DNA of 64,000 nucleotides from NCBI GenBank assembly GCA_028697455.1, contig JAQVEZ010000002.1, positions 89,921 to 153,920 on the forward strand, in the 5' to 3' direction. Source of the DNA: Minisyncoccota bacterium (GTDB lineage: Bacteria; Patescibacteriota; Minisyncoccia; Phycocordibacterales; UBA1006). The position numbers and the translations under genes were made by a program. This document shows positions 7,119-38,842 of this stretch, piece after piece (within the stretch, counting starts at the first letter, position 1; each line of letters begins with the position of its first letter). Below the pieces are notes generated by a model. It did not search any database. It was given only the letters and a program-made list of their open reading frames with translations, and was not told where the DNA came from.

Positions 7119-7120
7119 CC

Positions 7121-10399: not shown

Positions 10400-10410
10400 C
10401 AGATAAAAAA

Positions 10411-10437: not shown

Positions 10438-10439
10438 AT

Positions 10440-10448
10440 TTATCCACA
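10440..10448 (+). promoter_or_regulatory. Perfect TTATCCACA box upstream of the secreted BNR protein gene
   Basis: Exact 9-mer, 66 nt upstream of the ATG at 10514. Confidence 0.5.
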
Positions 10449-10513
10449 AATTATTTTTACTTCTCACAAAAAACTTGCTCAAGAGAAGGGCGAGGTGATA
10501 TTCTAGTAAGAAT

Positions 10514-11725
10514 ATGAAGAAAATTAATTTTATATTATTATCAATATTTTTTATAAGTCTGGCGTTTTTGGGAACAGATGCGTATGCAAATGAAATCGAA
10601 TGGTCAAGCATCGAAGCTCCTGCACAAAATTCTTGGCGTGCTGTAACCTATGGTGAAGGGAAATTTGTTGCCGTTTCTACCGATGGAACAAATCGAATTA
10701 TGATTTCAGAAGACGGTAAAAACTGGGAAGTAACTCCAACTACTTGGGGAAGCCAATGGTTTACTGGAATTGCTTACGGGAACGGAGCTTTTGTTCTTGG
10801 AAATGCTTGGAATGGCAACATTTTCTATCGATCAATAGATGGAGGACAAACGTGGACAGGAGTTACCGGAGCCGCTAGTGGAGCTCAATTGGGAGACATT
10901 GCTTATGTTGACGGGGTTTTTGTTGCTGTTGATTATTCAAGAAGCTTTACTAATCAAGCAGCAGGTCAGCAAATATTCATTTCAAATGATGGATGGACGT
11001 GGGAAGCAAAAGGAGAATCAGCCAAGAAATACTGGCATGGTATTGCTTACGGAGATGGAAAAATTGTTATTGTAGGGGGGAAAGGAGAATCAGCAACTGA
11101 TGGAAAACACATTGGAGTATCCGAAGACAAAGGACAAACCTGGCAATACTTTGCGGCACCAGTGGCTGGAGGTGGTTATTGGACCAGTGTTGCTTACGGG
11201 AATGGTAAATTCGTAGCCGTCTCAGACGACGAGGGAGCTGCTCAAGACATTATTGTATCAAGTGATGGTAAGAACTGGACAGCCTACTCTTCTCCCGACA
11301 CCAAAGCATGGTGGGAAGATATTGCTTTCGGAAATGGATATTTTGTAATGGTATCGTATGACTACGATAATAATTTGAGTGAACCAGGAAAGGCTGTTGC
11401 TATCTCTAAGGACGGAATTAACTGGGAGACCGTTGATACAGTACCGGGTCACGGATATTACTCAGTTACTTTTGGAGACGATAAGTTTGTTGTCGTAGCC
11501 CTTGACTCTGATGATAATAATCGAATCTTTCTTGGAGAATTTCCTCCACAAAAAAGCCTTTCATCTTCCAATATCTTCGGAACCCGATTCTGTTCAGCAG
11601 AAGTTACCACCTTCTGTCGACCACAAAACGGATTTATGAATAATAATCCATTAGTAAATATCTACACTGAACTTTTGGGACTCTATCAACAACTCCTTTC
11701 TGCAATGCAGGGACAAAACAGCTAA
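10514..11725 (+). CDS. Secreted BNR/Asp-box repeat beta-propeller-like protein carrying the conserved C-terminal module (paralog A)
   Basis: Signal peptide MKKINFILLSIFFISLAFLGTDAYA. It has about 8 repeats of W..IAYGNGKFVAV and SxDGxxW. The C-terminal 55 aa (SSSNIFGTRFCSAEVTTFCRPQNGF…LLGLYQQLLSAMQ) are shared with the genes at 12043 and 22905. Confidence 0.75.
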   Translation: MKKINFILLSIFFISLAFLGTDAYANEIEWSSIEAPAQNSWRAVTYGEGKFVAVSTDGTNRIMISEDGKNWEVTPTTWGSQWFTGIAYGNGAFVLGNAWNGNIFYRSIDGGQTWTGVTGAASGAQLGDIAYVDGVFVAVDYSRSFTNQAAGQQIFISNDGWTWEAKGESAKKYWHGIAYGDGKIVIVGGKGESATDGKHIGVSEDKGQTWQYFAAPVAGGGYWTSVAYGNGKFVAVSDDEGAAQDIIVSSDGKNWTAYSSPDTKAWWEDIAFGNGYFVMVSYDYDNNLSEPGKAVAISKDGINWETVDTVPGHGYYSVTFGDDKFVVVALDSDDNNRIFLGEFPPQKSLSSSNIFGTRFCSAEVTTFCRPQNGFMNNNPLVNIYTELLGLYQQLLSAMQGQNS

Positions 11726-11821
11726 GGCTGTTTTTCTTTTGTGAGATTCTTGTTGATGTTTTGGAAATAGATTATAATAAAAGAGAGAAGATCCTCTTCT
11801 GTTGAGAATAAGTTGTTTAGG

Positions 11822-11848
11822 AGCCCGCTATTCCGTAGCGGGCTTTTT
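11822..11848 (+). terminator. Intrinsic terminator after paralog A
   Basis: Stem agcccgcta/tagcgggct with loop ttccg and a T-run. Confidence 0.7.
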
Positions 11849-11885
11849 GATATAAAAAGTTACCCACAGGTATCTTTTCTGATAC

Positions 11886-12010
11886 TTGACATTTATCTTT
11901 ATTGTGATAAATTTACTAATGAATCTAACCAATTTAACAACAACACACCGCTTTAACCAAGCACCTAAACCACAAGGCTCCCTTTCATTCGTGAAAGGGG
12001 CTTTTTTCTT
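11886..12010 (+). ncRNA. Candidate small RNA (promoter, CA-rich body, terminator)
   Basis: TTGACA at 11886-11891 followed by a -10-like tgtgataaat. The body is CA-rich (caacaacacaccgctttaaccaagcacctaaaccacaagg). It ends in the hairpin ccctttc-attcgt-gaaaggg plus a T-run at about 11980-12008. No plausible ORF spans it. Confidence 0.3.
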
Positions 12011-12042
12011 TATTTTATTTAATCTTGGTATACTAAAAGAGT

Positions 12043-12894
12043 ATGAAAAAATACGTTTTTACATCACTACTATCATTGTTCGTTATAGTAGGATTTACAA
12101 GCTTTATGAGTCCACACAAAGTTTCTGCTGATTTTGAAGAAGGTCCTGAGGTTGTTTTTGAGGATGGAGGAAGATCTATTGTTGCAACTTTTGATCATGT
12201 TTTTCTTTTTACTCTTAAATATTTTGAGGAGGAAGATGGTACTGGTTATGAATTTGAAGATATAAGTATTCAAAGTTCTAGTGATAAGTGCGAAACAGAA
12301 AATGATGGGGACATCTACACAATAAGTTGTTATCAAGATATTCCCTTTGAAGTACAGAGTATAGTTATTGATTTTATGTGGAAGGGAGAATCACAAGGTG
12401 GTTATGCTCCAACACTATCTTCTTCAGATGTCTATAACAGAGCATTTACTTACCCAGAAATAATCTTTGAAGAAGGTGGTAGAGTTGTTATTATCAATTT
12501 TGATTCTGAATTTTATTTTGATATTTGTTATTTTGATGACGATTGTCTAATATATCTTTCTGATGGGGATTCTCTTGGAGAGGAATGTGAGATTATAGGA
12601 GATTATTCTGTTCGTTGTGAACAAGACATTCCTAAAGGAGCACTCGGGGTTGGGGTAGATGTATACGATGGAGATGGGAACGATTTTTATGATGAATATC
12701 TTTTTTCAACTCATAATCCTTCCTCATCAAGTATTTCAAATATCTTCGGAACACGATTCTGTTCAGCAGGAGTTACGACTTTCTGTCGACCTCAAAATGG
12801 ATTTACGAATAATAACCCATTAATCAGTATCTATACTGAACTTTTGGGATTGTATCAACAACTCCTTTCTGCTCTTCAAAACGAAAACAGCTAA
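12043..12894 (+). CDS. Secreted acidic Cys-containing repeat protein carrying the conserved C-terminal module (paralog B)
   Basis: Signal peptide MKKYVFTSLLSLFVIVGFTSFMSPHKVSA, near-identical to paralog C. It has an internal two-fold repeat (FEEGPEVVFEDGGRSIVATFD… / IFEEGGRVVIINFD…). The C-terminal module is SISNIFGTRFCSAGVTTFCRPQNGFTNNNPLISIYTELLGLYQQLLSALQ. A TGGTATACT -10 element sits 8 nt before the ATG. Confidence 0.75.
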   Translation: MKKYVFTSLLSLFVIVGFTSFMSPHKVSADFEEGPEVVFEDGGRSIVATFDHVFLFTLKYFEEEDGTGYEFEDISIQSSSDKCETENDGDIYTISCYQDIPFEVQSIVIDFMWKGESQGGYAPTLSSSDVYNRAFTYPEIIFEEGGRVVIINFDSEFYFDICYFDDDCLIYLSDGDSLGEECEIIGDYSVRCEQDIPKGALGVGVDVYDGDGNDFYDEYLFSTHNPSSSSISNIFGTRFCSAGVTTFCRPQNGFTNNNPLISIYTELLGLYQQLLSALQNENS

Positions 12895-12906
12895 TCCTAG
12901 CTGTTT

Positions 12907-13434
12907 TTATTCTGCGTTATAATACACATCTTGAACGTCATCGTGTTCTTCGAGAGTTTCAATAAGGGCTTCGAGTTTCTCACCTGTTTCATCATCAATT
13001 TCAATGGTGGTGTTAGGTATCCAATCACGCTCTTCGTTTTGACTAAAATTCCAAGCAACGGATCCACTTGCCCCAAGTGAAGCTCCGTTTTTTGAAAGAA
13101 GGTGTTTGATTTCTTGACTGGTTCGATTGTTGTTATCGGTAAGGCCGGTAATAATAATACCAACTCCTCCAGGGCCATAAGCTTCATAGAGAACAGGAGT
13201 CATATCTCCCGATTCAGATGCTTTTTTGATGGCACGATCGATGTTATCGTTTGGCATATTTTCTTTTCGTGCTTTTTCAATTGCTGTTTTAAGTCCAGGA
13301 GCATTCACATCCCCTCCAGATTTTTTTGCTTCAACTTGAATAAGACGAACGAGCTTTCCAAAGATTTTTGATTTTTGTGCATCAGTTGCTGCTTTTTTGT
13401 GTTTTATTTTTGACCATTTATTGTGTCCAGACAT
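12907..13434 (-). CDS. yebC: YebC/PmpR-family transcriptional regulator
   Basis: MSGHNKWSKIKHKKAATDAQKSKIFGKL is the canonical YebC N-terminus. 175 aa, short form. Confidence 0.85.
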   Translation of the reverse strand: MSGHNKWSKIKHKKAATDAQKSKIFGKLVRLIQVEAKKSGGDVNAPGLKTAIEKARKENMPNDNIDRAIKKASESGDMTPVLYEAYGPGGVGIIITGLTDNNNRTSQEIKHLLSKNGASLGASGSVAWNFSQNEERDWIPNTTIEIDDETGEKLEALIETLEEHDDVQDVYYNAE

Positions 13435-13469
13435 AAGTTAAGAAAGATAAGGGTGAATAATAGAGAAGG

Positions 13470-14486
13470 TTATTTTTTACCGAGATGAGCATAAGCTTTT
13501 TCGGTTGCGACACGCCCTCGTGAGGTGAGCTCGACAAGCCCCAATTGAACAAGATAGGGCTCAACGACCGATTCAAGCGTATCTTTTTCTTCATGAGTTG
13601 CAATAGCGAGCGTCCGCAAGCCAACAGGTCCTCCATTGAATTTATCAATAATAGTATTGAGAATATCGCGGTCATTCTGATGAAGCCCGATTTCATCTAC
13701 CCCAATAAGAGAAAGGGATTCAAGGACAGTGTCTTTGTTGATGGCTTTGTTATGAACATCAGCAAAGTCACGAACACGTTTTAAAAAATAATTTGCTGTC
13801 CGAGGGGTATAGCGACTTCGAATGGCAATTTCACGAGCAGCATCGGTATCAATACGAATGCCTAACTTTGCTGCTGATTGGTGGATAATTGTTTCCATTT
13901 CCTCGTTCGTATAGAATTCGAGTTTGAAAGTTCCTCCAGAAAATCGAGACCGCAATGGAGCCGAGAGCATCGCGATTTTTGTTGTCGCTGCAATGAGGGT
14001 AAAAGGAGGAAGATCGAGTTGAATCGTTCGAGCTGAAGGTCCTTTCCCAATAATAATATCGAGGAACCCAGATTCCATTGCAGGGTAGAGGACTTCCTCG
14101 ATATTTTTATTGAGACGGTGAATCTCATCAATAAAGAGAACATCTCCTTCGCTGAGGTTGGTGAGGATACTTGCGAGATCACCGACTTTTTCGATAGCAG
14201 GCCCTGAAGTTGTTTTGATATTTCGTCCGATTTCTTTTGCAATAAGATAGGAAAGCGTTGTCTTACCAAGACCAGGGGGTCCATAAAAAAGTAAGTGCTC
14301 GGGTTGTTGCCCGCGGTTTTGCGCAGCTGTGAGTAAGATGTGAAGATTATCTTTTATTGACTGCTGGCCTATGTATTCATCCCATGTTTCTGGTCTGAGC
14401 TGTGAATTAAGTGCTTGAGGTGCTTGTTCTTGCATAATAGATATCATAACATTTTTTAAGCTTTTTTTGAAGAAAGGGCTTGACAA
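13470..14486 (-). CDS. ruvB: Holliday junction branch-migration helicase RuvB
   Basis: AAA+ Walker A FYGPPGLGKTTL and FIDEIHRL. The true start may be an internal Met. Confidence 0.92.
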   Translation of the reverse strand: MSSPFFKKSLKNVMISIMQEQAPQALNSQLRPETWDEYIGQQSIKDNLHILLTAAQNRGQQPEHLLFYGPPGLGKTTLSYLIAKEIGRNIKTTSGPAIEKVGDLASILTNLSEGDVLFIDEIHRLNKNIEEVLYPAMESGFLDIIIGKGPSARTIQLDLPPFTLIAATTKIAMLSAPLRSRFSGGTFKLEFYTNEEMETIIHQSAAKLGIRIDTDAAREIAIRSRYTPRTANYFLKRVRDFADVHNKAINKDTVLESLSLIGVDEIGLHQNDRDILNTIIDKFNGGPVGLRTLAIATHEEKDTLESVVEPYLVQLGLVELTSRGRVATEKAYAHLGKK

Positions 14487-14503
14487 TTTTATTTATTCAC
14501 ATA

Positions 14504-14512
14504 TTATCCACA
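14504..14512 (+). promoter_or_regulatory. Perfect TTATCCACA box in the ruvB-pilB divergent intergenic region
   Basis: Exact 9-mer, 18 nt upstream of the ruvB start on the opposite strand. Confidence 0.5.
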
Positions 14513-14588
14513 GGAATATATGACATTGAAAAAATGCCATGTTATAGTCAAGATCCAACAGAGCTATTTATACGAGGGGAAAGGCCTC

Positions 14589-14616
14589 TTGACAAAATAA
14601 TTAGTTCTGCTATACT
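14589..14616 (+). promoter_or_regulatory. Strong sigma70-like promoter (TTGACA, 16-nt spacer, TATACT)
   Basis: Consensus -35 at 14589-14594 and -10 at 14611-14616. It lies about 230 nt upstream of pilB, which has its own TGTATAAT element right at its start. Confidence 0.55.
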
Positions 14617-14621
14617 GTTCT

Positions 14622-14775
14622 TATACATTGAAAGCGTGAATCTCTAAACAATCAGATCTCGCGAATTTGGCCACGTGGATAGGAATATTTGGCTCTCATC
14701 TTGTAATGAGTTCTGCTGAGTATCTCGTTGAAGCGTCGTCAACCTTTATTTTATAAAGTTTTTTTCTGGGTGTTT
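14622..14775 (+). ncRNA. Candidate sRNA or structured leader transcribed from the 14589 promoter
   Basis: The GC content is higher than the flanking AT-rich spacer. It ends with the hairpin gttga-agcgtcg-tcaac followed by a T-rich tract at about 14727-14770. No ORF is present. Confidence 0.3.
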
Positions 14776-14843
14776 AGAGGTTTATGCTTTTAATGAAAAA
14801 GCCGTTCTCATTCTGAGAGCGACTTTTTTATTACTGTTTTTGC

Positions 14844-17159
14844 TTGTATAATAGAAAGAGCATGGCTGCTTTCGACGATAAGGAACAAAATAAAAAAATC
14901 CAAGACATCCGAGCGAAGGAAGAAGAAGCATTCACCGAAAAAATTGCAAAGAAATTTGACCTTCCTTATATTGATCTTACGGGAGCCACGATAGAAACAG
15001 ATGCTCTTTCTAAGGTAAAAGAAGAAGACGCGCGGAAAGCCCTCCTCGCTCCTTTTAAAATTGTTGGAAAAGATTTATATGTTGCGCTCAAGTCGCCTAA
15101 TCTCCCCGAAACAAAAAGAGTTCTTGATAATCTTGAAAAAGACTACAATCTTGGAATTCATCTTGCATCCCAACGAAGTCTTGAAAAAGCATGGGGGCGT
15201 TATGAAGACATTACCTTTACCTTTGGAATAGAAGGAGGGGTTTTAGATATTTCTGAAGAAGAAATCAAAAAACTCGCTGCAAAAATCAAAACCAACCAAG
15301 ACATTGCCTTTGAATTTGACCGGGTTCTTGCTTTGGGAGAAGAGCGAAAGGTAACGCGTCTTATGGAAATTATTTTTGCCGGAGCTATTGCAACCGATTC
15401 TTCTGATGTGCATATTGAAGCGCAAGACGGAAAGGTAAGACTTCGTTTCCGTCAAGATGGAGTTCTTCAAGATATTATTTATTTTGACCCAGCTACCTAC
15501 AAACAAATTCTTTCACGAATTAAGCTCCTTTCAGAAATGAAACTTACTCAAACAGAAAATGCTCAGGACGGAAGGTTTACGATTGATTACGATAAAAAAG
15601 AAATTGAAATCCGTGTATCGGTTGTTCCAGGAGCTTTTGGAGAATCTTTTGTGATGCGTATTTTGAATCCCGATGGGATTAAAGTTGGAGTTGAACATCT
15701 TGGAATCGAAAAACGTCTTTATGAAATCCTTCTCAAGGAAATCGAAAAACCAAACGGAATGATTTTGACAACCGGACCTACCGGATCAGGAAAGACCACA
15801 ACCTTGTATTCTTTTATGAACAAAGTCTATTCTCCTGAGGTAAAGATTCTCACGATTGAAGACCCTATTGAATATCGTATTGAAGGAATCAACCAAACAC
15901 AGGTAAATCGCCAAAAAGGCTACACTTTTTCTTCTGGACTCCGAGCGGCTTTGCGACAGGACCCAGATATTATCATGGTGGGAGAGATTCGAGACAGTGA
16001 AACGGCAAGTATCGCGGTGAACGCTTCACTTACGGGGCACTTGGTTCTTTCAACACTCCACACGAACAGTGCAGCAGGAGTTATTCCTCGACTCCTTGAC
16101 CTTGGAGTATCCCCACAAATCCTTGCGGCTGCCTTATCGGTTTCGATTGCTCAGCGTTTGGTTCGTAAGGTTTGTGAATCATGTAAAGAAATTGTTGCTC
16201 CAACACCAGAACAAGAAGGTATTATTAGAGACGTTTTGAGAGAAGCACAAAAGAACGAAAAACCTCTTCACGAATACGGAATCAGCGTAAACCAAAAAAT
16301 AGAACTCAGTCGCGGAAAGGGCTGTGAAGTATGTAATGGAACAGGATATAAAGGACGTATCGGACTTTTTGAAGCTATTATTACTGATGAATATATCGAA
16401 GAACTCCTCAACAAGAGCCCGTCCGAACAAGAAATTCGTCGTGTTGCCGAAAAGCAGAGACTTCTTAATATCCGTGAAGATGGGGTAGTAAAAATCCTTA
16501 ATGGAATTACTTCTTTTGAAGAAGTTCAAAAGGTGATCGATCTTGATATCAAAAATATCACCCAATTTAAAACTGATACAGAAACCTCTCAAGGAGAAAA
16601 TATTTCTTTGGTAAACGAAGAAAGTAATCTTCCTCAGCAAAATACTTTTGCAGAAATACCTGAAAGTTCCAAACCCATATCTCAAGAAAACAAAGAAGAA
16701 GAAAATCTTGAAAAACTCCTCGAAGAAGTAAGTAAAAAAATCGACCTTGTCAAAGGGTCTGTTATCCCAAGCAAAAAAATTATCCCCGAAGAAGGAGCCC
16801 AAATCTCTCAGATTCCCCCTGCTGCAATTCTTAATAACAAAAGTATTGAGATATCGCTTTTGATTGATTATTTAAGACGACTTGAGCAGGATCAAATTCT
16901 TCGTCCCGATGTTGATATCAGTAAACAGATCAAACAAGTACAGCTCACAATACTTGAGCTTCTCCAGCGGAAACAAGCAGAAAGTATTCTCAACGCACAA
17001 GGAAATTTTGCACAAGCACACAAAACCTATACCGAACTTGCTGATGAGCTTGATACGCTCTATCGAGAACAACTTCAGAACCCAGGAGTTGATATGTCAG
17101 AAAGGATTAAAAAAATCCGTGAAGAAATTGAGTACTATCATTCACAACAAAGTATCTAA
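14844..17159 (+). CDS. pilB: Type II/IV secretion ATPase (PilB/GspE family) with a long C-terminal coiled-coil extension
   Basis: N-terminal T2SSE_N-like domain and Walker A TGPTGSGKTTTLYSF. A zinc-binding tetra-Cys CESCKE…CEVCNGTG is present. The C-terminal extension is about 200 aa. Confidence 0.9.
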   Translation: MYNRKSMAAFDDKEQNKKIQDIRAKEEEAFTEKIAKKFDLPYIDLTGATIETDALSKVKEEDARKALLAPFKIVGKDLYVALKSPNLPETKRVLDNLEKDYNLGIHLASQRSLEKAWGRYEDITFTFGIEGGVLDISEEEIKKLAAKIKTNQDIAFEFDRVLALGEERKVTRLMEIIFAGAIATDSSDVHIEAQDGKVRLRFRQDGVLQDIIYFDPATYKQILSRIKLLSEMKLTQTENAQDGRFTIDYDKKEIEIRVSVVPGAFGESFVMRILNPDGIKVGVEHLGIEKRLYEILLKEIEKPNGMILTTGPTGSGKTTTLYSFMNKVYSPEVKILTIEDPIEYRIEGINQTQVNRQKGYTFSSGLRAALRQDPDIIMVGEIRDSETASIAVNASLTGHLVLSTLHTNSAAGVIPRLLDLGVSPQILAAALSVSIAQRLVRKVCESCKEIVAPTPEQEGIIRDVLREAQKNEKPLHEYGISVNQKIELSRGKGCEVCNGTGYKGRIGLFEAIITDEYIEELLNKSPSEQEIRRVAEKQRLLNIREDGVVKILNGITSFEEVQKVIDLDIKNITQFKTDTETSQGENISLVNEESNLPQQNTFAEIPESSKPISQENKEEENLEKLLEEVSKKIDLVKGSVIPSKKIIPEEGAQISQIPPAAILNNKSIEISLLIDYLRRLEQDQILRPDVDISKQIKQVQLTILELLQRKQAESILNAQGNFAQAHKTYTELADELDTLYREQLQNPGVDMSERIKKIREEIEYYHSQQSI

Positions 17160-17219
17160 ACACTCTTGACAAAGAGTGTTTTTACTTTATGATAAGGAAG
17201 AATTTAAAATATTTTAAAA

Positions 17220-17933
17220 ATGAAAATAAAAACATTGTATTTGGTGTTGACGGCATTTTTTCTGAGTGCTTGCGCAAGTAGCACTTACCAGAAGATGCCT
17301 CCACCGAACCTTCAGCTATCCTTTCAAAATTTACAGTTTGAAAGGATAGATCCTGTGTCCCTTGTAGGCGTCTATGTCTCGTTTACAACAGCGGGACAGT
17401 TCTACAAAGACTCGCGAGCCGATCGTGAGGAAGCAGTCGATGCGGGTGTTTACATCCAGCACGACATTCTGTCGGGCGAGAGTTTGTATCAACCACTGGT
17501 CACTCCTGTTTTATACCTTACTGGTAAGGATCAGGGAAAACCTGTTCGGGACAAACGAACTGGCAAGATCCTCACGGATGATTTCCTTGGTGAGATCGTC
17601 TCGGTTGAGATAATGGACGGAGGACTTCCCTTGTTCTGGGTACATATTGATTCTCCTACGGGAGGAGCGATTTTGCCCTTTGGGCTTAGAGAAAGCCCCA
17701 AGCAAAAGGGACGACTTCAGGACAAGTTCGTCCTGATGATTGATAACAAGAGCGTCAGCTCTGGGGGGAAGAATTTCTTTCCAATTACGGATCTCTCTGG
17801 ACAAACCTGGTTTGCTCAGAATCCTGGCATGGGATTGAGCAAAATCTATTTTGCGAAATCCTCGGAGAACCAATCAACCTCTGAGGTGGGAACCTCAAAA
17901 AAGGTTGGGTTACCCGCCATTCGGGAACAGTAA
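17220..17933 (+). CDS. Lipoprotein, hypothetical (first gene of the GC-elevated island)
   Basis: Lipobox LSAC with signal peptide MKIKTLYLVLTAFFLSAC. The local GC content is visibly higher than elsewhere in the window. Confidence 0.6.
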   Translation: MKIKTLYLVLTAFFLSACASSTYQKMPPPNLQLSFQNLQFERIDPVSLVGVYVSFTTAGQFYKDSRADREEAVDAGVYIQHDILSGESLYQPLVTPVLYLTGKDQGKPVRDKRTGKILTDDFLGEIVSVEIMDGGLPLFWVHIDSPTGGAILPFGLRESPKQKGRLQDKFVLMIDNKSVSSGGKNFFPITDLSGQTWFAQNPGMGLSKIYFAKSSENQSTSEVGTSKKVGLPAIREQ

Positions 17934-18091
17934 TAATTAAAACAAAAACCCCAATTCTTGGACTTTTCCACAGGAGAGGGGTTTTATTCTTGACAAGTTA
18001 TCTTAATTATGATAAGATATTATCAAGGCTGAGTTCTTTACAAGTTCATTTTATTTAATTTTGAGAGTTAATTGTTTTTTTCAATGTAAAG

Positions 18092-18152
18092 TCTCAGCTC
18101 TTTAGGGAGAGTAACAGCATTATTATTCCTAAAGAGCTGAGAATGGTTCTCA
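18092..18152 (+). promoter_or_regulatory. Perfect 15-bp stem hairpin in the 5' UTR of the 18181 gene
   Basis: tctcagctctttagg (18092-18106) pairs exactly with cctaaagagctgaga (18128-18142), enclosing a 21-nt loop. A second hairpin, gagaa-tgg-ttctc, follows. A TTGACA promoter lies at about 17989. Confidence 0.5.
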
Positions 18153-18180
18153 GTAATTCAAAACTCAAAAAATTAAAAAA

Positions 18181-19140
18181 ATGAAAAAAATCTTTTTTTT
18201 GTTCATTGCAATACTGGGTATTGTGGTGAACGCAAATTATCTGGCTCCTGAAGGTTATTTTGTCCTTGAGGGAAGAACACAGGCAATGCCCAATGTGAAT
18301 TGGCTGGCCTCAGAAATGAACCCAACCAATTTTCCCATCTATGCACAGGAAAACAATAGTATGGGAGCATACTTTAACTATTCTTTCGTTCAGGATGGGA
18401 GAGTGATGGGTACTGAAAGGATTCACCTTTCGGATCAGATAGTAGCGTCCATTGGGCGCCACTTGTCAAATCCGAGAACCGGAGAGTCTTTGTCATCCGT
18501 TTGTGCCCGACAGGGAGGGCAATTTAATGCTGTTAATCGTATCGCTTTGCAATACGCACAACAGCAGATACCTGCTCCTCAGCAGCAATGCTGTCCTACG
18601 CCAGCCCCCCAACAAACTCAAATTGAGTATGTGGATAGACCTGTTTATATACAGGATCCACAAACCAATGAGATGTTGGCTCAATTACAAGCTGACAACG
18701 TTCAGCTTGAAAAACAACTGAGACGCAACCAGACCTGGACCCATATTTGGGGAGGGGTGAACCTGGCGGCGACAGCAGTAGACGGGTATTTGACTCGTCG
18801 TGAGATTAAAAAAAGAAACCGCCCTGTTAACTATAATTATAAAATAGTTAACAATACTCGTACCACCAATAATACCTATAATAATGGTGGAACGACTGGT
18901 AGTGGTGAGACCTGGACTGGAAACGGTTCAGGAAACGAGAACGGTGGTAGCTGGAATCCGAACAACAATCCCGGAAATAACAACGGGAATGGTTCGGGAG
19001 CCGATCCCTTTGGGAGAGGCTATCAGCAAGGAAGTGGATACTCACAAGGCTATTCGTCTATGACGAGCCAGGTGAGAACATCAGCTTCTGGAAGAAGCTC
19101 AAACGGAACAAAATCCGTGCGCTTCCAGAAGAAGCGTTAA
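18181..19140 (+). CDS. Secreted low-complexity (N/G/T/Q-rich) hypothetical protein
   Basis: Signal peptide MKKIFFLFIAILGIVVNA. The C-terminal half is NNTYNNGGTTGSGETWTGNGSGNENGG…. The GC content is elevated. Confidence 0.55.
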   Translation: MKKIFFLFIAILGIVVNANYLAPEGYFVLEGRTQAMPNVNWLASEMNPTNFPIYAQENNSMGAYFNYSFVQDGRVMGTERIHLSDQIVASIGRHLSNPRTGESLSSVCARQGGQFNAVNRIALQYAQQQIPAPQQQCCPTPAPQQTQIEYVDRPVYIQDPQTNEMLAQLQADNVQLEKQLRRNQTWTHIWGGVNLAATAVDGYLTRREIKKRNRPVNYNYKIVNNTRTTNNTYNNGGTTGSGETWTGNGSGNENGGSWNPNNNPGNNNGNGSGADPFGRGYQQGSGYSQGYSSMTSQVRTSASGRSSNGTKSVRFQKKR

Positions 19141-19159
19141 GCAAAATTTAAAACAACAA

Positions 19160-19186
19160 GAGCCTTACGAGTTAAGGCTCTTTTTT
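19160..19186 (+). terminator. Intrinsic terminator
   Basis: Stem gagcctta/taaggctc with loop cgagt and a T6 run. Confidence 0.7.
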
Positions 19187-19254
19187 ATTGCACCAAAACA
19201 TTGACAAGAGACTCTTACAATGCTATTTCTAGGGTAAATATAAAAAAATTAAAG

Positions 19255-20055
19255 ATGAAAAAAGTTTTCTTTTTCTTTGTTGTGCTTTTTTCAAGCTTTG
19301 CGCTTGAGGCACAACGAAATGACGGGGTTGCCCGTCCGACCCGAGGTGCTTTTTGGGATCAGGGCTGCGACGGCTCCATATCCAAGTACGTCGAAAATAA
19401 TCTTGGACCAGGGACTTACTCTGTAGAGTGTGGCGGAATTTCTTATTCCATTGTTGTTGAGCAGATGTGGGATAAAGATACTAAAATTCTTTTCCGTGAT
19501 GGAAATTTTTCCGAAAGAAATCGTAACTGGGTTACGATTTACGGAAAAAAAATCTGGAGATATTCAAGCTCAAATGACTGGACCCTTGCAGATTGTGGAA
19601 ATCGTATCTACGATATCTCTCGTGGACCAAAAGATCTCCAAGGAGGAGGGCTTGTTGTTACTGGCGATAACGGATGTAATTGTCCCGAGCCAAAAGTAAA
19701 GGACTATCAGTTCGAAACGACACCCTTGCGGGGGACAAATACTCCTATGTATTATTTTCCTCCACAACCCCAACAGCCAATGTACGCTTTTGACCAAAAT
19801 GCGTTCTTACCAAAGCAAAAAACTTGGATGGGGAGAAATTGGGGATGGTTTGTTCCACTTCTTGCTGTTGGCGTTGGTACGGGAACGTATTTCCTGATAG
19901 ACGCACTCAACAGCAACCACAGCTCAAGCAACCCACCACCTGATGATGGAGATGGTGATGAGACCTGGGGTCCGAACGACTCTGGGAGTGAACGAGGAAA
20001 AGTGTATACCGTTCCAACCCCTTCAAGAGGGTTTGTTATTCCTATTTTCCAGTAA
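19255..20055 (+). CDS. Secreted Cys-containing hypothetical protein with a C-terminal TM anchor
   Basis: The likely start is the Met at 19255 (MKKVFFFFVVLFSSFALEAQ signal peptide); the ORF track begins at 19201. A TM segment WGWFVPLLAVGVGTGTYFLI lies near the C-terminus. The GC content is elevated. Confidence 0.55.
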   Translation: MKKVFFFFVVLFSSFALEAQRNDGVARPTRGAFWDQGCDGSISKYVENNLGPGTYSVECGGISYSIVVEQMWDKDTKILFRDGNFSERNRNWVTIYGKKIWRYSSSNDWTLADCGNRIYDISRGPKDLQGGGLVVTGDNGCNCPEPKVKDYQFETTPLRGTNTPMYYFPPQPQQPMYAFDQNAFLPKQKTWMGRNWGWFVPLLAVGVGTGTYFLIDALNSNHSSSNPPPDDGDGDETWGPNDSGSERGKVYTVPTPSRGFVIPIFQ

Positions 20056-20067
20056 AAGAGGGAAAAC

Positions 20068-20076
20068 TGTGGATAA
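20068..20076 (-). promoter_or_regulatory. Perfect DnaA-box 9-mer (TGTGGATAA on the + strand) upstream of the large surface protein gene
   Basis: Exact reverse complement of TTATCCACA, immediately after the 19255 gene's stop. Confidence 0.45.
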
Positions 20077-20099
20077 CTTTTAAAAAGTAAAAGGTGTAG

Positions 20100-20128
20100 T
20101 TGACAACTACATCTTTTTTTGCTATGAT
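20100..20128 (+). promoter_or_regulatory. Sigma70 promoter (TTGACA, 17-nt spacer, TATGAT)
   Basis: Consensus spacing, upstream of the 20165 gene. Confidence 0.55.
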
Positions 20129-20164
20129 ACACTTGTTATTCATTATAATTTATCACGACATAAC

Positions 20165-22804
20165 ATGAATCAATTTATCAAAAAATTTGTACAAATTGCA
20201 GTACTTACCGGATCCCTCGTTATTGCAGGGAATGCTTTGGCTGCAAATTTTGACCCCCAACCAATGGGGAATCATGGTTTTACAACCATTAACACCAATT
20301 GTTCACAAGATTGTGCAAATCAAAAAAACAGTATTTCATACAACGAGCTTCCAGCAAGCAAGGAATTTACTGTGTATTTGAATTTTCACAATAATACCCC
20401 TGGGCATATTACTAATGCTGCAGGAAAGGTGAGCTATGCTTCATCTGGAAGTTCAGGGTCTGCGACTTTCACCGGACAGCTTTCTGGGTCAGGAGCATCA
20501 ACTATTACTGACACAGCGACTATTACAAACCTTCCATCAAGTTGGCAAATTCAATTTGTTTCTGGTTTTGTAAGAGTAGAAGAACACTACAGTAACCAAG
20601 GAACTCCCTGTACTGGGACTTTTCCTGGAACATGGCCATGGCAACATAGTTTTTCAAACCCTTCTAATGCACCAATAGGAACACTTCATTACTTTAATGC
20701 TAATGAAGGAGGATGGTGTGATCAAGGATATGTTTTTGCAAAATTTAAAATCGTTGATACCACCGTTAATGATCCAACACCAGTAAACGGTCAGTGTCGT
20801 GTTTATAATGGAACCTACTCCTCACAACCTGCAACGAACACCGCAACTGGATGTCTTGCAGGAACCTATCAAGATACACAGGACACTCAAACACAATGGA
20901 GATGGCAATGTAACGGATTGCATGGTGGAGCAACAACCAGTTGTTCTGCCGCAAAGCAAACCATTAACCAACCAGAGTATAGTTATGCCTGGGGATGGAG
21001 TGCCTGGGGATCCTGTATTAACAACATTCGAACAAGAACAGCTCAGTGTTTACGAACAGAAGTAGGAACTCAAGGACCGTCAAACCCTGTTGTGGTAAAT
21101 GATAGTTACTGTATCCAAAATGTTGGGCCAAAACCAGCACCACAAACTCAATCTTGTTCAGGAACACCTTCTGAAGATACTCTTTCTATTGAAACCTTAG
21201 GAGCAACGAATATTACCCAATCAAGCGCAAAGCTTAATGGACGAGTTCTTGCGGGAAGTACTAACTATGTTTACTTTGTATTAGGAACTAACAGTAACAA
21301 TCTTACCTGTTCTTCTAATAACAAATATTTCCCTTATGATTTCAACATTAACCGAAATGCTGGGGATATGTTTAGCTATACTTTCCCTAACGGAAGTTTG
21401 AGCAGCAACTCAACCTATTACTACCGAGCATGTGCCCAAGGAGTTACCGGAATTACTCCAGGACAAATTGTTTCTTTCAAAACAAAAAAAGCTTCATCAA
21501 ATGAAAATCACGTTGAGATCGTTACCGAAGCGCCACAATCAGTAACCAAGACAACAGCTGATCTCTGTGCGAACCTTGTTGAGGATGGAGGGAGTCAAGT
21601 TCAAACATGGATTGAATATCGAAAGAGTTCAGCAAACTCATGGTCAGAGACACCTACTCATCAACGATATGCAGGATACTTCTGTCAGTCAGTTACAGGG
21701 CTTTCTTCAAACACTTCATACGTGTATCGAGCATGTACTCCAGAGGGATGTGCTTCAACCAGAACCTTTAAGACTCTTTCTTCTGGGTCTGGAAGCTATG
21801 ATCCAGGAGAAGCTCCCATTATTATTACTGACGACCCAACAAACGTTCGAAGTAACGGAGCAATCCTTAACGGTACTTATGTAACTAACGCACCAAGTGG
21901 AACCTGTTGGTTCGAATACGGACGAACAGCCAACCTTGGAAGCCAAACACGAAGCTATTCTGTGGGAAGCGGATATGGAACCTGTGTTCATAACTTTACT
22001 AATCTTGCAGCAAATCAGCTTTACTGTGTACGAGCCGTTATTCAGACCGTAAATGGAACTTCACGAGGAGGAATAAAATGTTTCACTACACCAGGAACTA
22101 CTTATACTGGAGGAGGAACAGTCTATGTACCTCCACGAGTTGTTGTTGTTGAAGAAAACCCACAAGTAGACCTCTCTGCTCTTGGACTAGGACTTTCTTT
22201 GGTGAGACTCAATATCGATGATCACAATGATGTTGTTTTTCCAGGACAACAAGTTATGTATGAGGTAACATGGGAAAATATTTCTCATATTGATCTTGAT
22301 AACTTGCAACTCAAGGTTACTATTCCTTCAAAAATCACTATCACCAGTGCTTCACGAGGACGAATTAACCCAGAGGACAACAGTATTCTCTATATGATTA
22401 GTGACCTTCGTTCAGGAGAGCGAGGAGAGCTTACCATTGGAGGACTTGTTGGGAAACCAACCATAGGAACCGCACTTACTGCACAAGCAGAACTTGCGTA
22501 TAAAAACCCTATTAACTTTGCACAAGAAAATGCTCTTGATTTTGACATCAACGATGTTGGAACAAGAATTGCAGGAGTAACGGCTTCTATCTTTGGATTA
22601 GGAAATATTACCTTCCTTGGATGGCTTGTAATTCTCCTTGGACTCTTTATTATCTTCTTGATTGCTCGGTATCTTTACCTTGAACGAGAAGAATTGAGAG
22701 CTCAGGCATATATGAGTGGATATTCACCATATAACAATCCACCAAACTTTAACCCACGACCTCAAGACGATTATTACAATCCGTATCGACCAAATCGTGG
22801 ATAA
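20165..22804 (+). CDS. Large Cys-rich cell-surface protein with a C-terminal TM anchor and a Pro/Tyr/Asn-rich tail
   Basis: 879 aa with signal peptide MNQFIKKFVQIAVLTGSLVIAGNALA. The body has many Cys and repeated blocks of about 90 aa (fibronectin-III-like by pattern). A TM segment FLGWLVILLGLFIIFLIARYL is followed by the tail YSPYNNPPNFNPRPQDDYYNPYRPNRG. Confidence 0.7.
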   Translation: MNQFIKKFVQIAVLTGSLVIAGNALAANFDPQPMGNHGFTTINTNCSQDCANQKNSISYNELPASKEFTVYLNFHNNTPGHITNAAGKVSYASSGSSGSATFTGQLSGSGASTITDTATITNLPSSWQIQFVSGFVRVEEHYSNQGTPCTGTFPGTWPWQHSFSNPSNAPIGTLHYFNANEGGWCDQGYVFAKFKIVDTTVNDPTPVNGQCRVYNGTYSSQPATNTATGCLAGTYQDTQDTQTQWRWQCNGLHGGATTSCSAAKQTINQPEYSYAWGWSAWGSCINNIRTRTAQCLRTEVGTQGPSNPVVVNDSYCIQNVGPKPAPQTQSCSGTPSEDTLSIETLGATNITQSSAKLNGRVLAGSTNYVYFVLGTNSNNLTCSSNNKYFPYDFNINRNAGDMFSYTFPNGSLSSNSTYYYRACAQGVTGITPGQIVSFKTKKASSNENHVEIVTEAPQSVTKTTADLCANLVEDGGSQVQTWIEYRKSSANSWSETPTHQRYAGYFCQSVTGLSSNTSYVYRACTPEGCASTRTFKTLSSGSGSYDPGEAPIIITDDPTNVRSNGAILNGTYVTNAPSGTCWFEYGRTANLGSQTRSYSVGSGYGTCVHNFTNLAANQLYCVRAVIQTVNGTSRGGIKCFTTPGTTYTGGGTVYVPPRVVVVEENPQVDLSALGLGLSLVRLNIDDHNDVVFPGQQVMYEVTWENISHIDLDNLQLKVTIPSKITITSASRGRINPEDNSILYMISDLRSGERGELTIGGLVGKPTIGTALTAQAELAYKNPINFAQENALDFDINDVGTRIAGVTASIFGLGNITFLGWLVILLGLFIIFLIARYLYLEREELRAQAYMSGYSPYNNPPNFNPRPQDDYYNPYRPNRG

Positions 22805-22811
22805 TACCAAA

Positions 22812-22832
22812 AAACACCTTCGGGTGTTTTTT
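22812..22832 (+). terminator. Intrinsic terminator
   Basis: Stem aacacc/ggtgtt with loop ttcg and a T-run. Confidence 0.65.
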
Positions 22833-22859
22833 GATATGGAACAAAGAGTACAAAAGTTT

Positions 22860-22902
22860 TTGACAAAAAATTGACTCGGGGGGGGGGGCAGGGTGATATA
22901 CT
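22860..22902 (+). promoter_or_regulatory. Promoter of paralog C with a G11 homopolymer tract in the -35/-10 spacer
   Basis: TTGACA at 22860-22865 and TTGACT at 22871-22876. The G x11 tract runs 22878-22888. An extended -10 TGATATACT lies at 22894-22902, with 20 nt between TTGACT and TATACT. The G-run is unique in the window. Confidence 0.6.
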
Positions 22903-22910
22903 AGATGAGT

Positions 22911-24209
22911 ATGAATAAACATATTTTTACGTCACTACTATCGTTATTTGTGATAGTAGGTTTTACAAGTTTTATTAACCCACACACGGTTTCTGCTCAA
23001 CCTATCGAATGGGAGGAGTTTGATTTGAGTCCTGATAATTATAATTCTATTGCTTACGGAAATGGAGTGTATGTTGTGGTCGGGGATGAAGCCTCAATGT
23101 ACTCCTCTGACGGAAAGAATTGGTACCCAGCAATGACCTCGTTGGCGGGAGTCCTGTACTCCGTTGTTTATGGAGATGGAAAATTTGTCGCAGTAGGAAG
23201 CAGCAACAACACAAGTACAAGCAATCCTGTAGCTTATACCTCTACAGATGGAGTAATATGGAGTCCTTCTTTTGAGGCCTTGCCCCCTAAAGTAAATACT
23301 GGAGCTGGGCTTAAAAAAGTTTCCTATGTCTATGACAATATCAACGAAAAAAACCTTTTTGTCGCAGTAGGATCTGACTTATCTAATCTTTTAGGAGGAA
23401 GTCAGATTCCTTACATTATTTATTCTTCTAATGGAAACGAGTGGTTTAAGGCTACCTTACCAATGGGGGTTAATGGTACCGCTTCAGATTTAACAGGAGG
23501 TTATAATGAAGATGGAGAGGTCGTTTTCCTATCTTCAGTAGCAACAAACCCCCTTCTCTCTTCATCAAATATTATTATGTCTACTAATGGTGGAGCAAAT
23601 TGGTTCTATCCAGACGACGCTCTTACAGGACTTGACGGTTTTAGCGGGGCAGCTATGAGCTACCTTAATGGAGAATTTTTTCTTGGAGGAACTATTTCTG
23701 ATATGGGAAGTAAGCTTATTTATGTAATGTCTTCATCGGATGGATTCAATTGGGAGCAGCATGAAGTTGGGTCAACTGTCTCATTTTTTCCTAGATTCAA
23801 TTTTGCATATGGAAATGATAATTATATATCGATAGGGGCAGAAGAATCAATATATTCTTTGGGTGGAGAAAATTGGGAATTTTTTACTCCAAGTTTTGAC
23901 AAGAGCACTGATTTTGGAGTCTATCCAATACAATTAATTTATGCAGATGATTCCTTTGTTCTTTTGGGACAAAATGAATTAGGAGAATCTATTGTTGCTT
24001 TTCCTAAACGCCTGAACGATTCATCAGAAGGGCTTTCTTCAAAATCTTCAAGCATTTTTGGAACACGATTTTGTTCAGCAGGAGTTACGACTTTCTGTAG
24101 ACCACAAAACGGATTTGTGAACAACAACCCATTGATTAGTATTTATACTGAACTTCTGGGACTGTACCAACAACTCCTTTCTGCGATGCAGAGTGAAAAT
24201 AGCTTATAA
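22911..24209 (+). CDS. Secreted BNR/Asp-box-like repeat protein carrying the conserved C-terminal module (paralog C)
   Basis: Signal peptide MNKHIFTSLLSLFVIVGFTSFINPHTVSA. Repeats such as YSVVYGDGKFVAVG and SxDGxxW are present. The C-terminal module is SSIFGTRFCSAGVTTFCRPQNGFVNNNPLISIYTELLGLYQQLLSAMQ. The ORF-track start at 22905 is 2 codons upstream. Confidence 0.75.
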   Translation: MNKHIFTSLLSLFVIVGFTSFINPHTVSAQPIEWEEFDLSPDNYNSIAYGNGVYVVVGDEASMYSSDGKNWYPAMTSLAGVLYSVVYGDGKFVAVGSSNNTSTSNPVAYTSTDGVIWSPSFEALPPKVNTGAGLKKVSYVYDNINEKNLFVAVGSDLSNLLGGSQIPYIIYSSNGNEWFKATLPMGVNGTASDLTGGYNEDGEVVFLSSVATNPLLSSSNIIMSTNGGANWFYPDDALTGLDGFSGAAMSYLNGEFFLGGTISDMGSKLIYVMSSSDGFNWEQHEVGSTVSFFPRFNFAYGNDNYISIGAEESIYSLGGENWEFFTPSFDKSTDFGVYPIQLIYADDSFVLLGQNELGESIVAFPKRLNDSSEGLSSKSSSIFGTRFCSAGVTTFCRPQNGFVNNNPLISIYTELLGLYQQLLSAMQSENSL

Positions 24210-24252
24210 GAGCTGTTTTTTTATTTTCGGATTTTGTTAGTATAAGAACTGT

Positions 24253-32483: not shown

Positions 32484-33497
32484 ATGATATGGATAACTTT
32501 AGGTATTATTATTACTTCAATTGCTGGTATTTTTTTAGCACAACACATCGAAAAACATCGCTCTGATGAGAATCACAGTATTTGCCCAATAGGAAGTAAC
32601 TGTGAACCACTTCTCAACGGAAGATTCTCACATTTTTTTGGAATTTCTGTTGAGAAAATTGGAAAATGGTATTTTGCATTTATTCTTGCTCTTTATACGG
32701 CAAGTCTTGTTGTTCCCCTTCCTTTGTGGATTTTATTTATAGGACTTTCGTCTTCTCTTGTTGCGTTCGCTTTCTCTTTATACCTTTCAATCGTTCAGGT
32801 TTTTGTTGTGAGGCGATGGTGTACGCTTGCGCTCTTTTCAACAGCCCTTAGTTTCCTGGTTCTCGTATTGGCTTTTCTTGGTTATGAAAAAACCTTTATA
32901 GAGTTTACCTATTCTCATCGAGATCTTTTTAGGTGGGTGTATGTTCTTGCTGTGTGGGGAGGAACACTTATCACAACGTTCCATGCAGGAACTTTTATAA
33001 AATTCCTTAAAGATTTTAAAATTTCAAAACGAGAAGAGAAACGACTCACTATGTTTTCTCAGGTAGCGTGGACTGCTCTTGGACTTGCTTTCCTTGCGGG
33101 GATAGGACTTGTTTTGACAGATCAATGGAGAGAAATTGTCGACAGTACTTCCTTTGTTGTTATGGTTTTTGTTATGGGGATGCTTATTGTCTATGAGGTT
33201 GTCGCAAATATGATTGTAGCGCCTTGGCTTATTCATCTTAATTTTGAAGAAGGTCTCTCGGAAGAAGAGCTCACACGACACGCTTTTTATAGAAAAACTG
33301 CCTTTAGTTTTATTGGGGTTGGGGTTGTTTCTTGGTATTCGCTCCTCCTCCTCACTACCTTTGACTGGTTCAGTTATTCAAGCTTACAAATTTTCCTTAT
33401 TTACGTAGGACTTATTATTGCATCAGTTATTTGTGCACTCTATCTTGAGCTTATTATTTCTAGAAAATCACAACTTTTCCAAAAAAAAGAACTCTAA
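32484..33497 (+). CDS. Polytopic membrane protein, hypothetical
   Basis: 337 aa with about 9 predicted TM segments and an N-terminal CPIGSNCEPLL Cys pair. A TTGGTATACT -10 element sits 8 nt upstream of the ATG, the same architecture as at 12043. Confidence 0.5.
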   Translation: MIWITLGIIITSIAGIFLAQHIEKHRSDENHSICPIGSNCEPLLNGRFSHFFGISVEKIGKWYFAFILALYTASLVVPLPLWILFIGLSSSLVAFAFSLYLSIVQVFVVRRWCTLALFSTALSFLVLVLAFLGYEKTFIEFTYSHRDLFRWVYVLAVWGGTLITTFHAGTFIKFLKDFKISKREEKRLTMFSQVAWTALGLAFLAGIGLVLTDQWREIVDSTSFVVMVFVMGMLIVYEVVANMIVAPWLIHLNFEEGLSEEELTRHAFYRKTAFSFIGVGVVSWYSLLLLTTFDWFSYSSLQIFLIYVGLIIASVICALYLELIISRKSQLFQKKEL

Positions 33498-38167: not shown

Positions 38168-38842
38168 ATGACAAGTACATCAAAACGACGAAACAAAAGA
38201 GCTTGGATTATTAGTATTATTGCCATCGTAGCACTTTTGATTATTGCTTTTATTATTTCTCGAACAGAGAAAACTGTCGACCCAGCATCTTTTGCTGATG
38301 TTGTAACCTTTGATTTAGGAGCTCATGAAAAAGGAAATCTTGATTCTCAAATACGACTTATTGAATATTCTGATTTTCAATGTCCTGCATGTAAATCAGC
38401 TGAACCTGCTGTTGAAGATCTTGTAAATACTTTCGGTGATCAGTTTGTGTTTGAATATCGACACTATCCACTGAGATCAATTCACCCTAATGCACAAAAA
38501 GCAGCAGAAGCTTCAGAAGCAGCCGCAAAGCAGGGAAAGTTTTGGGAGATGCATGACATTCTTTTTGCTCGACAAAACGAATGGTCACAATCATTTAACC
38601 CAGAAAAAATGTTTAGCTCTTACGCAAAAGAAATTGGGTTGAACGTTGACCGCTTTAAATATGATTTGAAATCAGATGAGGTTAAGAAGGTGGTTAATGA
38701 TTCTTATAATGAAGCAGTAAGTCTTAACCTTCCAGGGACACCTTCATTTGTGTACGACGGAAAAGAGATTGATTTTAATGACTTTATTAACCAGCACCTT
38801 GATCTTTCTCAATTTATTCAGCCAGAGATTATCGAAGAATAA
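38168..38842 (+). CDS. DsbA-like thiol:disulfide oxidoreductase (membrane-anchored thioredoxin fold)
   Basis: N-terminal TM and the active site FQCPACK. Confidence 0.85.
   Translation: MTSTSKRRNKRAWIISIIAIVALLIIAFIISRTEKTVDPASFADVVTFDLGAHEKGNLDSQIRLIEYSDFQCPACKSAEPAVEDLVNTFGDQFVFEYRHYPLRSIHPNAQKAAEASEAAAKQGKFWEMHDILFARQNEWSQSFNPEKMFSSYAKEIGLNVDRFKYDLKSDEVKKVVNDSYNEAVSLNLPGTPSFVYDGKEIDFNDFINQHLDLSQFIQPEIIEE

Follow-up and report, generated by a model that had tools for sequence, protein, structure and literature searches.

A conserved C-terminal loop-and-helix module on strain-variable secreted proteins of Pacebacteria-like bacteria

Introduction

A constant C-terminal module that tethers variable proteins to the cell surface is a known concept. 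Described examples include the LPXTG signal of sortase substrates, the PEP-CTERM, GlyGly-CTERM and PGF-CTERM signals, the C-terminal domain (CTD) of the type IX secretion system (T9SS), which is a beta-sandwich of ~80 amino acids (aa; 70–100 aa across the family), and the OmpA-like, SLH, LysM and dockerin docking domains. Low-molecular-weight penicillin-binding proteins (PBPs), such as Escherichia coli PBP5/DacA and PBP6, have C-terminal amphipathic-helix membrane anchors; the PBP5-type helix has a high hydrophobic moment, usually with cationic residues flanking its apolar face. The mycoplasma Vsp/Vlp-type lipoprotein families are variable surface proteins with conserved 5′ and 3′ gene ends. 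Here we analyse a 64,000-nucleotide (nt) stretch of a Minisyncoccota bacterium (contig JAQVEZ010000002.1, positions 89,921 to 153,920; hereafter, the window), in which three genes, A, B and C, encode secreted proteins that end in a shared tail of ~50 residues, hereafter the module. This family, with its loop-plus-helix architecture and no transmembrane (TM) segment, is undescribed in the libraries and literature that we searched.

Like the LPXTG, PEP-CTERM, GlyGly-CTERM and PGF-CTERM signals and the T9SS CTD, the module stands at the extreme C terminus of Sec-dependent proteins, behind a low-complexity Ser-rich linker, and is common to several paralogs per genome that carry differing passengers within one lineage. 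It differs from the sortase- and exosortase-type signals in having no signature tripeptide, hydrophobic TM helix, basic tail or cognate enzyme nearby, and it is not a beta-sandwich of the T9SS kind. The idea of one unchanging docking unit that serves varied passengers is common to the module and to OmpA-like, SLH, LysM and dockerin domains, but the module has no sequence similarity to these domains and, at ~50 aa, falls well short of their size; its predicted structure, a loop followed by a single helix, is also unlike theirs.

A C-terminal module under peptide-level selection

Our analysis covered the window and short contigs of relatives (L001–L013). A sequence-only reading of the window had proposed three secreted genes with a common C-terminal module, and all three open reading frames (ORFs) and their modules lie where that reading placed them:

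Gene A, 10514..11725, + strand: 403 aa; signal peptide of residues 1–25 (10514–10588), propeller, Ser-rich linker, C-terminal module
Gene B, 12043..12894, + strand: 283 aa; signal peptide of residues 1–29 (12043–12129), acidic duplicated Cys passenger, Ser-rich linker, module
Gene C, 22911..24209, + strand: 432 aa from 22911; signal peptide of residues 1–29 (22911–22997), Asp-box propeller, Ser-rich linker, module
Module copy A, 11573..11722, + strand: IFGTRFCSAEVTTFCRPQNGFMNNNPLVNIYTELLGLYQQLLSAMQGQNS
Module copy B, 12742..12891, + strand: IFGTRFCSAGVTTFCRPQNGFTNNNPLISIYTELLGLYQQLLSALQNENS
Module copy C, 24054..24206, + strand: IFGTRFCSAGVTTFCRPQNGFVNNNPLISIYTELLGLYQQLLSAMQSENSL

The shared tail reads IFGTRFCSA(E/G)VTTFCRPQNGF(M/T/V)NNNPL(V/I)(N/S)IYTELLGLYQQLLSA(M/L)Q, followed by 4–5 residues and the stop codon, with a cysteine spacing of C-x7-C (C SAEVTTF C) and not the C-x8-C first reported. 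A tblastn search of the window with the A module returned exactly three copies (E 4e-36, 8e-29 and 2e-28) and a next match at E 0.2, so the similarity lies far beyond chance; a hidden Markov model (HMM) of the module, run on all six-frame window ORFs, found the same three copies only.

Among A, B and C the module is 85–89% identical as protein and 81–83% as DNA. Between copies, 46–48 codons specify the same amino acid, and 12–19 of these differ synonymously. By the Nei–Gojobori method, the synonymous divergence (dS) is 0.5–1.1, the nonsynonymous divergence (dN) 0.03–0.06 and dN/dS 0.04–0.13, values that confirm purifying selection on the module peptide. This is what the sequence-only reading had held; its contrast with recent gene conversion is only half right in the light of the strain comparison described below, which places breakpoints in or at the module and reveals a mosaic A/B copy. 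Our data confirm that the tail is a genuine C-terminal domain constrained at the peptide level.

In an alignment of 11 modules, the residues G, R, F, C ... F, C, R and, further on, Y, L and Q of the helix are invariant. The module runs from the Ser-rich linker through G-(T/V)-R-F-C-x7-C-R and a short Asn/Pro-rich hinge into a ~22-residue amphipathic helix that extends up to the stop. For the module alone (56 residues), AlphaFold2 (AF2) gives a confident helix at about residues 31–56 (block-mean predicted local distance difference test 77–95) behind a low-confidence loop. In the full-length gene A model, built with a 22-sequence alignment, the module is a low-confidence, flexible appendage, unpacked against the confident propeller. 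We rejected a role in closing or packing on the propeller, because the module also exists without a propeller and is undocked in this model.

The organism appears able to form extracytoplasmic disulfides, as two genes of the window indicate:

VKOR-family protein, 32484..33497, + strand: Pfam PF07884, E 1e-14
DsbA-like thioredoxin-fold protein, 38168..38842, + strand: Pfam PF01323 / PF13462, E 1e-16 to 3e-17

These homologs make a disulfide between the two invariant module cysteines plausible. Such a bond most likely closes the C-x7-C stretch into a loop, in which each Cys has an invariant Arg and Phe at its side. The amphipathic character of the helix is given by a hydrophobic moment (muH) of 0.32–0.45 that 0.5–5% of shuffles reach or exceed. 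The helix carries no charge but one Glu; Lys and Arg are absent from it in all members except one. The net charge of the module is 0 to +1 in the window copies. Its maximum Kyte–Doolittle mean over 19 residues is ~1.0, which is not that of a TM segment, and we rejected a TM-anchor reading on hydropathy, with the member P0014 borderline at 1.8.

We compared the module and the full proteins with Pfam and NCBIfam at E ≤ 1, and the module profile with PDB sequences at E ≤ 10. The module matched nothing in Pfam, NCBIfam or the PDB sequences, and its motif description was not found in the literature searched. With respect to sortase anchoring, there is no LPXTG in the last 60 residues, no TM helix, no basic tail and no NCBIfam match; for PEP-CTERM, GlyGly-CTERM and PGF-CTERM, motif and TM helix are absent, neither Pfam nor NCBIfam gives a match, and the window encodes no such enzyme. 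No HMM for the T9SS CTD (PF18962 / TIGR04183) matches this ~50-aa loop plus helix, and hmmscan of the module and full proteins returned no OmpA-like, SLH, LysM or dockerin domain. The absence of a TM segment and of known C-terminal signatures, and the novelty of the module with respect to Pfam, thus agree with what had been read from the sequence.

Propeller and non-propeller passengers

Residues ~29–342 of gene A form a confident seven-bladed Asp-box beta-propeller (AF2, predicted TM-score 0.77), whose top structural match in the PDB is Ycf48 (Foldseek, E 1e-14, target-length TM-score 0.73). The SxDGxxW Asp-box is visible in every propeller blade, and the passengers of both A and C are Asp-box (BNR) propellers, as their repeats had suggested. 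Gene A shares fold and Asp-boxes with Ycf48/BNR-type propellers at a sequence identity to Ycf48 of only 15%. Its own Pfam matches score under the gathering threshold; its propeller homologs comprise at least 2443 sequence matches, with PF03736, PF25852, PF02012 or PF15902. A and C align over their full length at 34% identity and are homologous propellers, so the description of the passengers as unrelated stands for B and falls for A and C.

Gene B aligns with A and C at its ends only, and its 29-aa signal peptide is near-identical to that of C, as noticed before. The B passenger is indeed an acidic, duplicated, Cys-containing domain, rich in D/E and Cys and with an internal duplication, and gene B has no Pfam or NCBIfam family match. 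B is identical to P0002. Gene A has orthologs in P0003 (95% identity) and P0016 (83%), the latter carrying the NCBI label 'sialidase family protein', a label only, which does not imply catalytic function. The gene C homologs P0005 and P0004/P0130 begin at the equivalent Met.

In other phyla, propeller homologs carry recognised anchoring or sorting parts: a C-terminal OmpA-like domain (PF00691) in 8 of the top 120 matches, with P0105 as one propeller homolog of this kind, a T9SS tail (PF18962) at the C-terminal end of P0097, and in others a type IV pilin motif at the N terminus. The propeller is therefore habitually a tethered surface passenger.

A narrowly distributed multigene family

An exhaustive HMMER scan of 1.84 billion protein cluster representatives retrieved 13 true module members. 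When two module profiles were run in a word-indexed search over 5.8 billion proteins, P0001 was the sole match; this search was evidently blind to most members, since the exhaustive scan retrieved them. With later additions (P0016, P0079, P0130 and a 147-aa ORF in L012), the family comprises ~19 distinct proteins, all from Pacebacteria-like bacteria of the candidate phyla radiation (CPR). In every member, the three window copies included, the module ends 0–6 residues from the C terminus, and every member with a complete N terminus has a signal peptide. At least six members lie on four contigs of one metagenome-assembled genome (MAG), a 'Candidatus Pacebacteria bacterium' with PHC89_ locus tags; their accessions are MDD3694240.1, MDD3694219.1, MDD3694164.1, MDD3693974.1, MDD3694196.1 and MDD3693786.1. 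The module thus recurs on other secreted proteins, and the possibility that it is just a recent three-gene duplication, which the sequence-only reading had named as its refutation, fails.

The passengers of these members are propellers, the gene B domain or short Gly- or Pro-rich spacers. Three are near-minimal, consisting of signal peptide, spacer and module: P0011 (130 aa), P0013 (115 aa) and the 147-aa protein in L012. The invariant G-R-F-C...F-C-R...Y..L..Q persists in the distant members P0013 and P0014, whose DNA has lost its blastn match to the window. No locus was confirmed by pattern scans, which could miss divergent copies, in GTDB species representatives, JGI metagenomes or IMG/VR; the module is accordingly absent or very rare there, and the family narrow.

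Passenger cassettes differ between strains

Two contigs of relatives, L010 and L011, are ~96–97% identical to window 1088–17198 (blastn) and differ from it in one segment:

Strain-variable segment, 10619..12735, + strand: A passenger, A module, intergenic region, B signal peptide and B passenger

In L010, identity ends at window 10618, just after the A signal peptide, and restarts at 12736, at the start of or inside the B module; the variable segment is replaced by a different propeller cassette of 915 bp (P0006, 47% identical to A). In L011 the sole gene is A-like, and informative sites show that its module is A-type in the first ~66 nt and then carries B-type bases, terminator and flank. Gene B is missing in both. 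The break positions in L010 and L011, together with the mosaic A/B module, indicate that the conserved gene ends are real recombination breakpoints. At a second locus, L009 has one member versus two in tandem in L012. The strain comparison shows passenger cassettes replaced, gained or lost between conserved ends, which act as homology arms.

This second polymorphic locus (L012 3008–5426 versus L009 3445–3837) lies downstream of a HicA toxin gene. L012 encodes the 147-aa Gly-rich member and a propeller there, and L009 the short member only. The signal peptide of the L012 propeller (3981–4124) is split from its body, a sign of either a frameshift or faulty assembly. Little besides gene B is present on contig L013, a 1.4-kb fragment, as expected if assemblies break at the repeated gene ends.

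What the family displays is conserved flanks, a variable core, and replacement and deletion between strains; phase- or antigen-variable gene families are in addition defined by a switching mechanism (invertase, slipped-strand repeats or silent-cassette conversion). The suggestion of a cassette-like surface-protein family, made as an alternative in the sequence-only reading, is the part best supported by this evidence. As in the mycoplasma Vsp/Vlp families, the divergent centre lies between a conserved tail and a promoter and signal-peptide block that is near-identical, cassettes differ between strains, and the organism is host-associated with a reduced genome. In contrast to Vsp/Vlp, the module family has no lipobox, tandem-repeat expansion, invertase or phase-variation element, or silent cassettes, and its variation, known from strain comparison alone, is between strains, by allelic replacement or deletion. 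No switching element was seen beside the family genes.

Conservation extends into promoter block and terminator

DNA conservation among A, B and C runs past the stop codon into a terminator hairpin, AAAACAGC(U)-loop-(A)GCUGUUUU plus a U-run, which in each of them takes in the final two codons and the stop. A similarly conserved block precedes each gene, at ~10490–10513 for A and ~22879–22910 for C; the elements are as follows:

Intrinsic-terminator hairpin of A, 11715..11734, + strand: AAAACAGC-TAAG-GCTGTTTT and a T-run, with the last two sense codons and the stop included
Terminator hairpin of B, 12883..12908, + strand: GAAAACAGCUA-AUCC-UAGCUGUUUUU; −12.4 kcal/mol, z = −4.6
Terminator hairpin of C, 24198..24217, + strand: overlaps the gene end, with the stem kept by a U.G wobble
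Conserved 5′ block of gene B, 12002..12042, + strand: extended −10-like box TGGTATACT ending ~8 nt before the ATG

Part of each hairpin comes from the two final sense codons and the stop, so conservation of the terminal (Q/E)NS residues may have RNA rather than protein reasons. In A, B and C alike (window 10490–10513, 12020–12042 and 22888–22910), an extended −10-like box, TGnTAT(A/T)CT, ends ~8 nt before the ATG with no clear Shine–Dalgarno sequence between, an arrangement that suggests leaderless or near-leaderless family transcripts. The 5′ block is conserved in the related contigs L009, L012 and L008; L012 3940–4024 and L009 3402–3507 match window 12002–12086/12105 at 80–88%.

A tentative role in envelope retention and its alternatives

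We tentatively favour a reading in which the tail, a domain specific to this lineage, retains or docks strain-variable, adhesin-like proteins at the envelope by non-covalent contacts. Attachment is suggested by the position of the module, its linker, its independence of the passenger and the analogy with the anchors of propeller homologs. In this view, Sec-exported proteins encoded by a dispersed multigene family of Pacebacteria-like CPR bacteria would each end in the module as a domain that folds on its own. Once such a protein is exported and its signal peptide removed, the module would retain the otherwise soluble passenger on the envelope without a covalent bond, its helix and Arg/Phe loop packing against a common envelope partner or into the membrane's outer face. 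The passengers so held would be Asp-box propellers that probably bind ligands or the host, the acidic Cys domain and Gly-rich spacers. The 5′ end (promoter block and signal peptide) and the 3′ end (module and terminator) serve as homology arms for cassette exchange between strains, and a constant attachment device would thereby carry a variable surface repertoire. RecA, ComEC and PilB are encoded in the window.

One analogy for such retention is with PBP5 and PBP6, which are likewise Sec-exported, otherwise soluble and ended by an amphipathic helix with no TM segment. The module differs from these anchors in its additional invariant disulfide-type loop, the lack of cationic helix residues in the window copies, an only moderate hydrophobic moment and a near residue-for-residue conservation of the helix, and these differences argue for a specific partner and not for generic lipid binding. 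A more particular version of the envelope-retention reading, in which the tail is a novel type of Patescibacteria attachment device, a TM-less, sortase-independent anchor of disulfide loop and uncharged helix that plugs into a dedicated envelope receptor and doubles as a homology arm for swaps of host-binding propeller cassettes by naturally competent cells, is possible though doubtful.

Several observations weigh against envelope retention. The helix falls under the Eisenberg surface-seeking threshold (muH ~0.35 at a mean hydrophobicity <H> of ~0.35) and has no cationic residues, which leaves simple lipid anchoring poorly supported. Confidence in the Cys loop is low in the models of both the module alone and the full-length protein. 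For a pure anchor, proteins made up only of a spacer and the module would be unusual, and a role in oligomerisation or as an effector fits them equally. Finally, members sit among housekeeping genes (after rplE, between dnaJ and cysS, and between a PBP1 gene and yebC), with no consistently adjacent gene for a candidate receptor.

A regex search of the window proteins for Leu/Gln-rich amphipathic helices, as partners of the module helix, found nothing convincing. Downstream of the members in two related contigs (L009 4728–5117 / L012 6010–6342) lies a gene for a secreted protein with a Leu/Gln-rich amphipathic helix, ELKLQILQLLTQLQAQIISL, right after its signal peptide, followed by a stretch resembling a peptidoglycan-binding domain; no equivalent was seen in the window. 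It is conceivable that this ELKLQILQLLTQLQAQIISL helix is a helix–helix partner of the module tail.

The best-surviving alternative, which we nevertheless consider unlikely, is homo-oligomerisation, in which the amphipathic helices form a bundle or coiled coil capped by the disulfide loops and multimerise the passengers, as in trimeric adhesins or fibres, without attaching them to the envelope. The very high conservation of the helix, its hhphhpp pattern over three heptads and its uncharged polar face would suit such packing, as would a helix that is confidently predicted yet unpacked on its own passenger, and the spacer-plus-module proteins could serve as fibre subunits. The helix is, however, only ~22 residues long, and oligomerisation alone explains neither the surface retention of otherwise anchorless proteins nor, unless hetero-oligomers form, a near-identical tail on unrelated passengers.

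Quite unlikely is a true sorting signal, a tail recognised and then removed or covalently transferred by a dedicated enzyme as in sortase, exosortase, rhombosortase or T9SS-CTD systems. The extreme C-terminal position behind a Ser-rich linker, the common tail on paralogs with differing passengers and the multiple copies in one genome (at least six in the PHC89 MAG) are what such a signal would show, but the TM helix and basic tail usual in LPXTG, PEP-CTERM, GlyGly-CTERM and PGF-CTERM are missing, and the sorting-signal models of NCBIfam and Pfam give no match even with the threshold relaxed to E ≤ 1. No sortase-, rhomboid- or exosortase-like gene lies in the 64-kb window or beside members elsewhere. 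The Pfam scan of the window covered ORFs of at least 150 aa, all but four long ones, plus tsaE; among these ORFs and beside the members in L001–L013, no neighbour of sortase, rhomboid, exosortase or transporter type was found, contrary to the expected dedicated protease or transporter, and the only membrane protease in the window is a generic M50 peptidase (56650–57246). Of the undescribed sorting, docking or anchoring signal first proposed, 'undescribed' holds for Pfam, NCBIfam and PDB sequences, sorting remains a guess, and non-covalent docking or anchoring fits better.

An effector role, with the disulfide loop and amphipathic helix as a membrane-active or receptor-binding 'warhead' that the variable passengers target, in a layout that may resemble pediocin-like bacteriocins and Arg-flanked disulfide-loop peptides, is improbable. 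CPR bacteria live attached to host cells, some members (P0011, P0013) are little but module, and an invariant Arg and Phe stand beside each loop Cys, all of which count in its favour. Set against this, the window copies are near-neutral (net 0 to +1), no immunity-like gene recurs next to members, and no Pfam bacteriocin family matches. Very improbable, finally, is conservation mainly at the DNA level, in which gene conversion maintains the similarity of the ends as handles for recombination and the peptide has no specific function: the mosaic module, the breakpoints at conserved ends, the extension into terminator and promoter block, and a dS among window paralogs (0.5–1.1) under that to more distant members (1.7–3) speak for it, but 36–57% of synonymous sites already differ between the window copies while dN is 0.03–0.06, and the distant P0013 and P0014 keep the invariant residues without a blastn match in DNA, signatures of protein selection that largely refute it.

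Gene neighbourhood

The family adjoins genes for a PilB ATPase and a large surface protein, as had been reported, with a run of secreted and membrane proteins without family matches between pilB and gene C (17220–22804):

pilB, 14844–17159: neighbour of the family
Lipoprotein, 17220–17933: Cys in a lipobox-like SAC; within the run from pilB to gene C
Two Asn/Gly/Pro-rich proteins, 18181–19140 and 19201–20055: a hydrophobic segment in the C-terminal part of each; within the same run
DUF11 surface protein, 20165–22804: 879 aa, C-terminal TM anchor; neighbour of gene C

The island of elevated GC described for this region amounts to a modest rise only (0.41–0.43 versus about 0.38). Two Asp-box propellers of other bacteria, P0043 and P0060, have type IV pilin-like N termini (FSLVEML / FTIVEMM); these fusions indicate that the propeller passenger can be displayed on pilin-like scaffolds, which is of interest since A and B adjoin pilB. 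A P-loop ATPase resembling TraG/VirB4 (PF19044, E 7e-26) is encoded further upstream, at window 412–2256, shortly before the jag/yidC/rnpA-dnaA origin-region genes. The neighbours of P0013 (89–91 aa and 149 aa) have no module and no obvious relation to it.

Implications

This family offers a concrete handle on how CPR bacteria hold their surface proteins and recognise their hosts. A constant tail of ~50 residues marks a set of secreted, strain-variable and probably ligand-binding proteins, with at least six genes in one small MAG; it was found only in a narrow Pacebacteria-like group from a handful of samples, whose sequencing runs include SRR21722008-21, SRR22315504 and SRR31966184. The layout of conserved ends and variable core also explains why assemblies break at these genes, as in L013.

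Should the tail prove to be an anchor or docking domain, sequence alone would suffice to define part of this lineage's surface proteome, and the tail would also identify the loci of greatest difference between strains, which would be candidate determinants of host specificity. If it is further a receptor-plugging anchor that doubles as a homology arm, the chemistry of attachment would be linked to host-range variation in an episymbiotic lineage.

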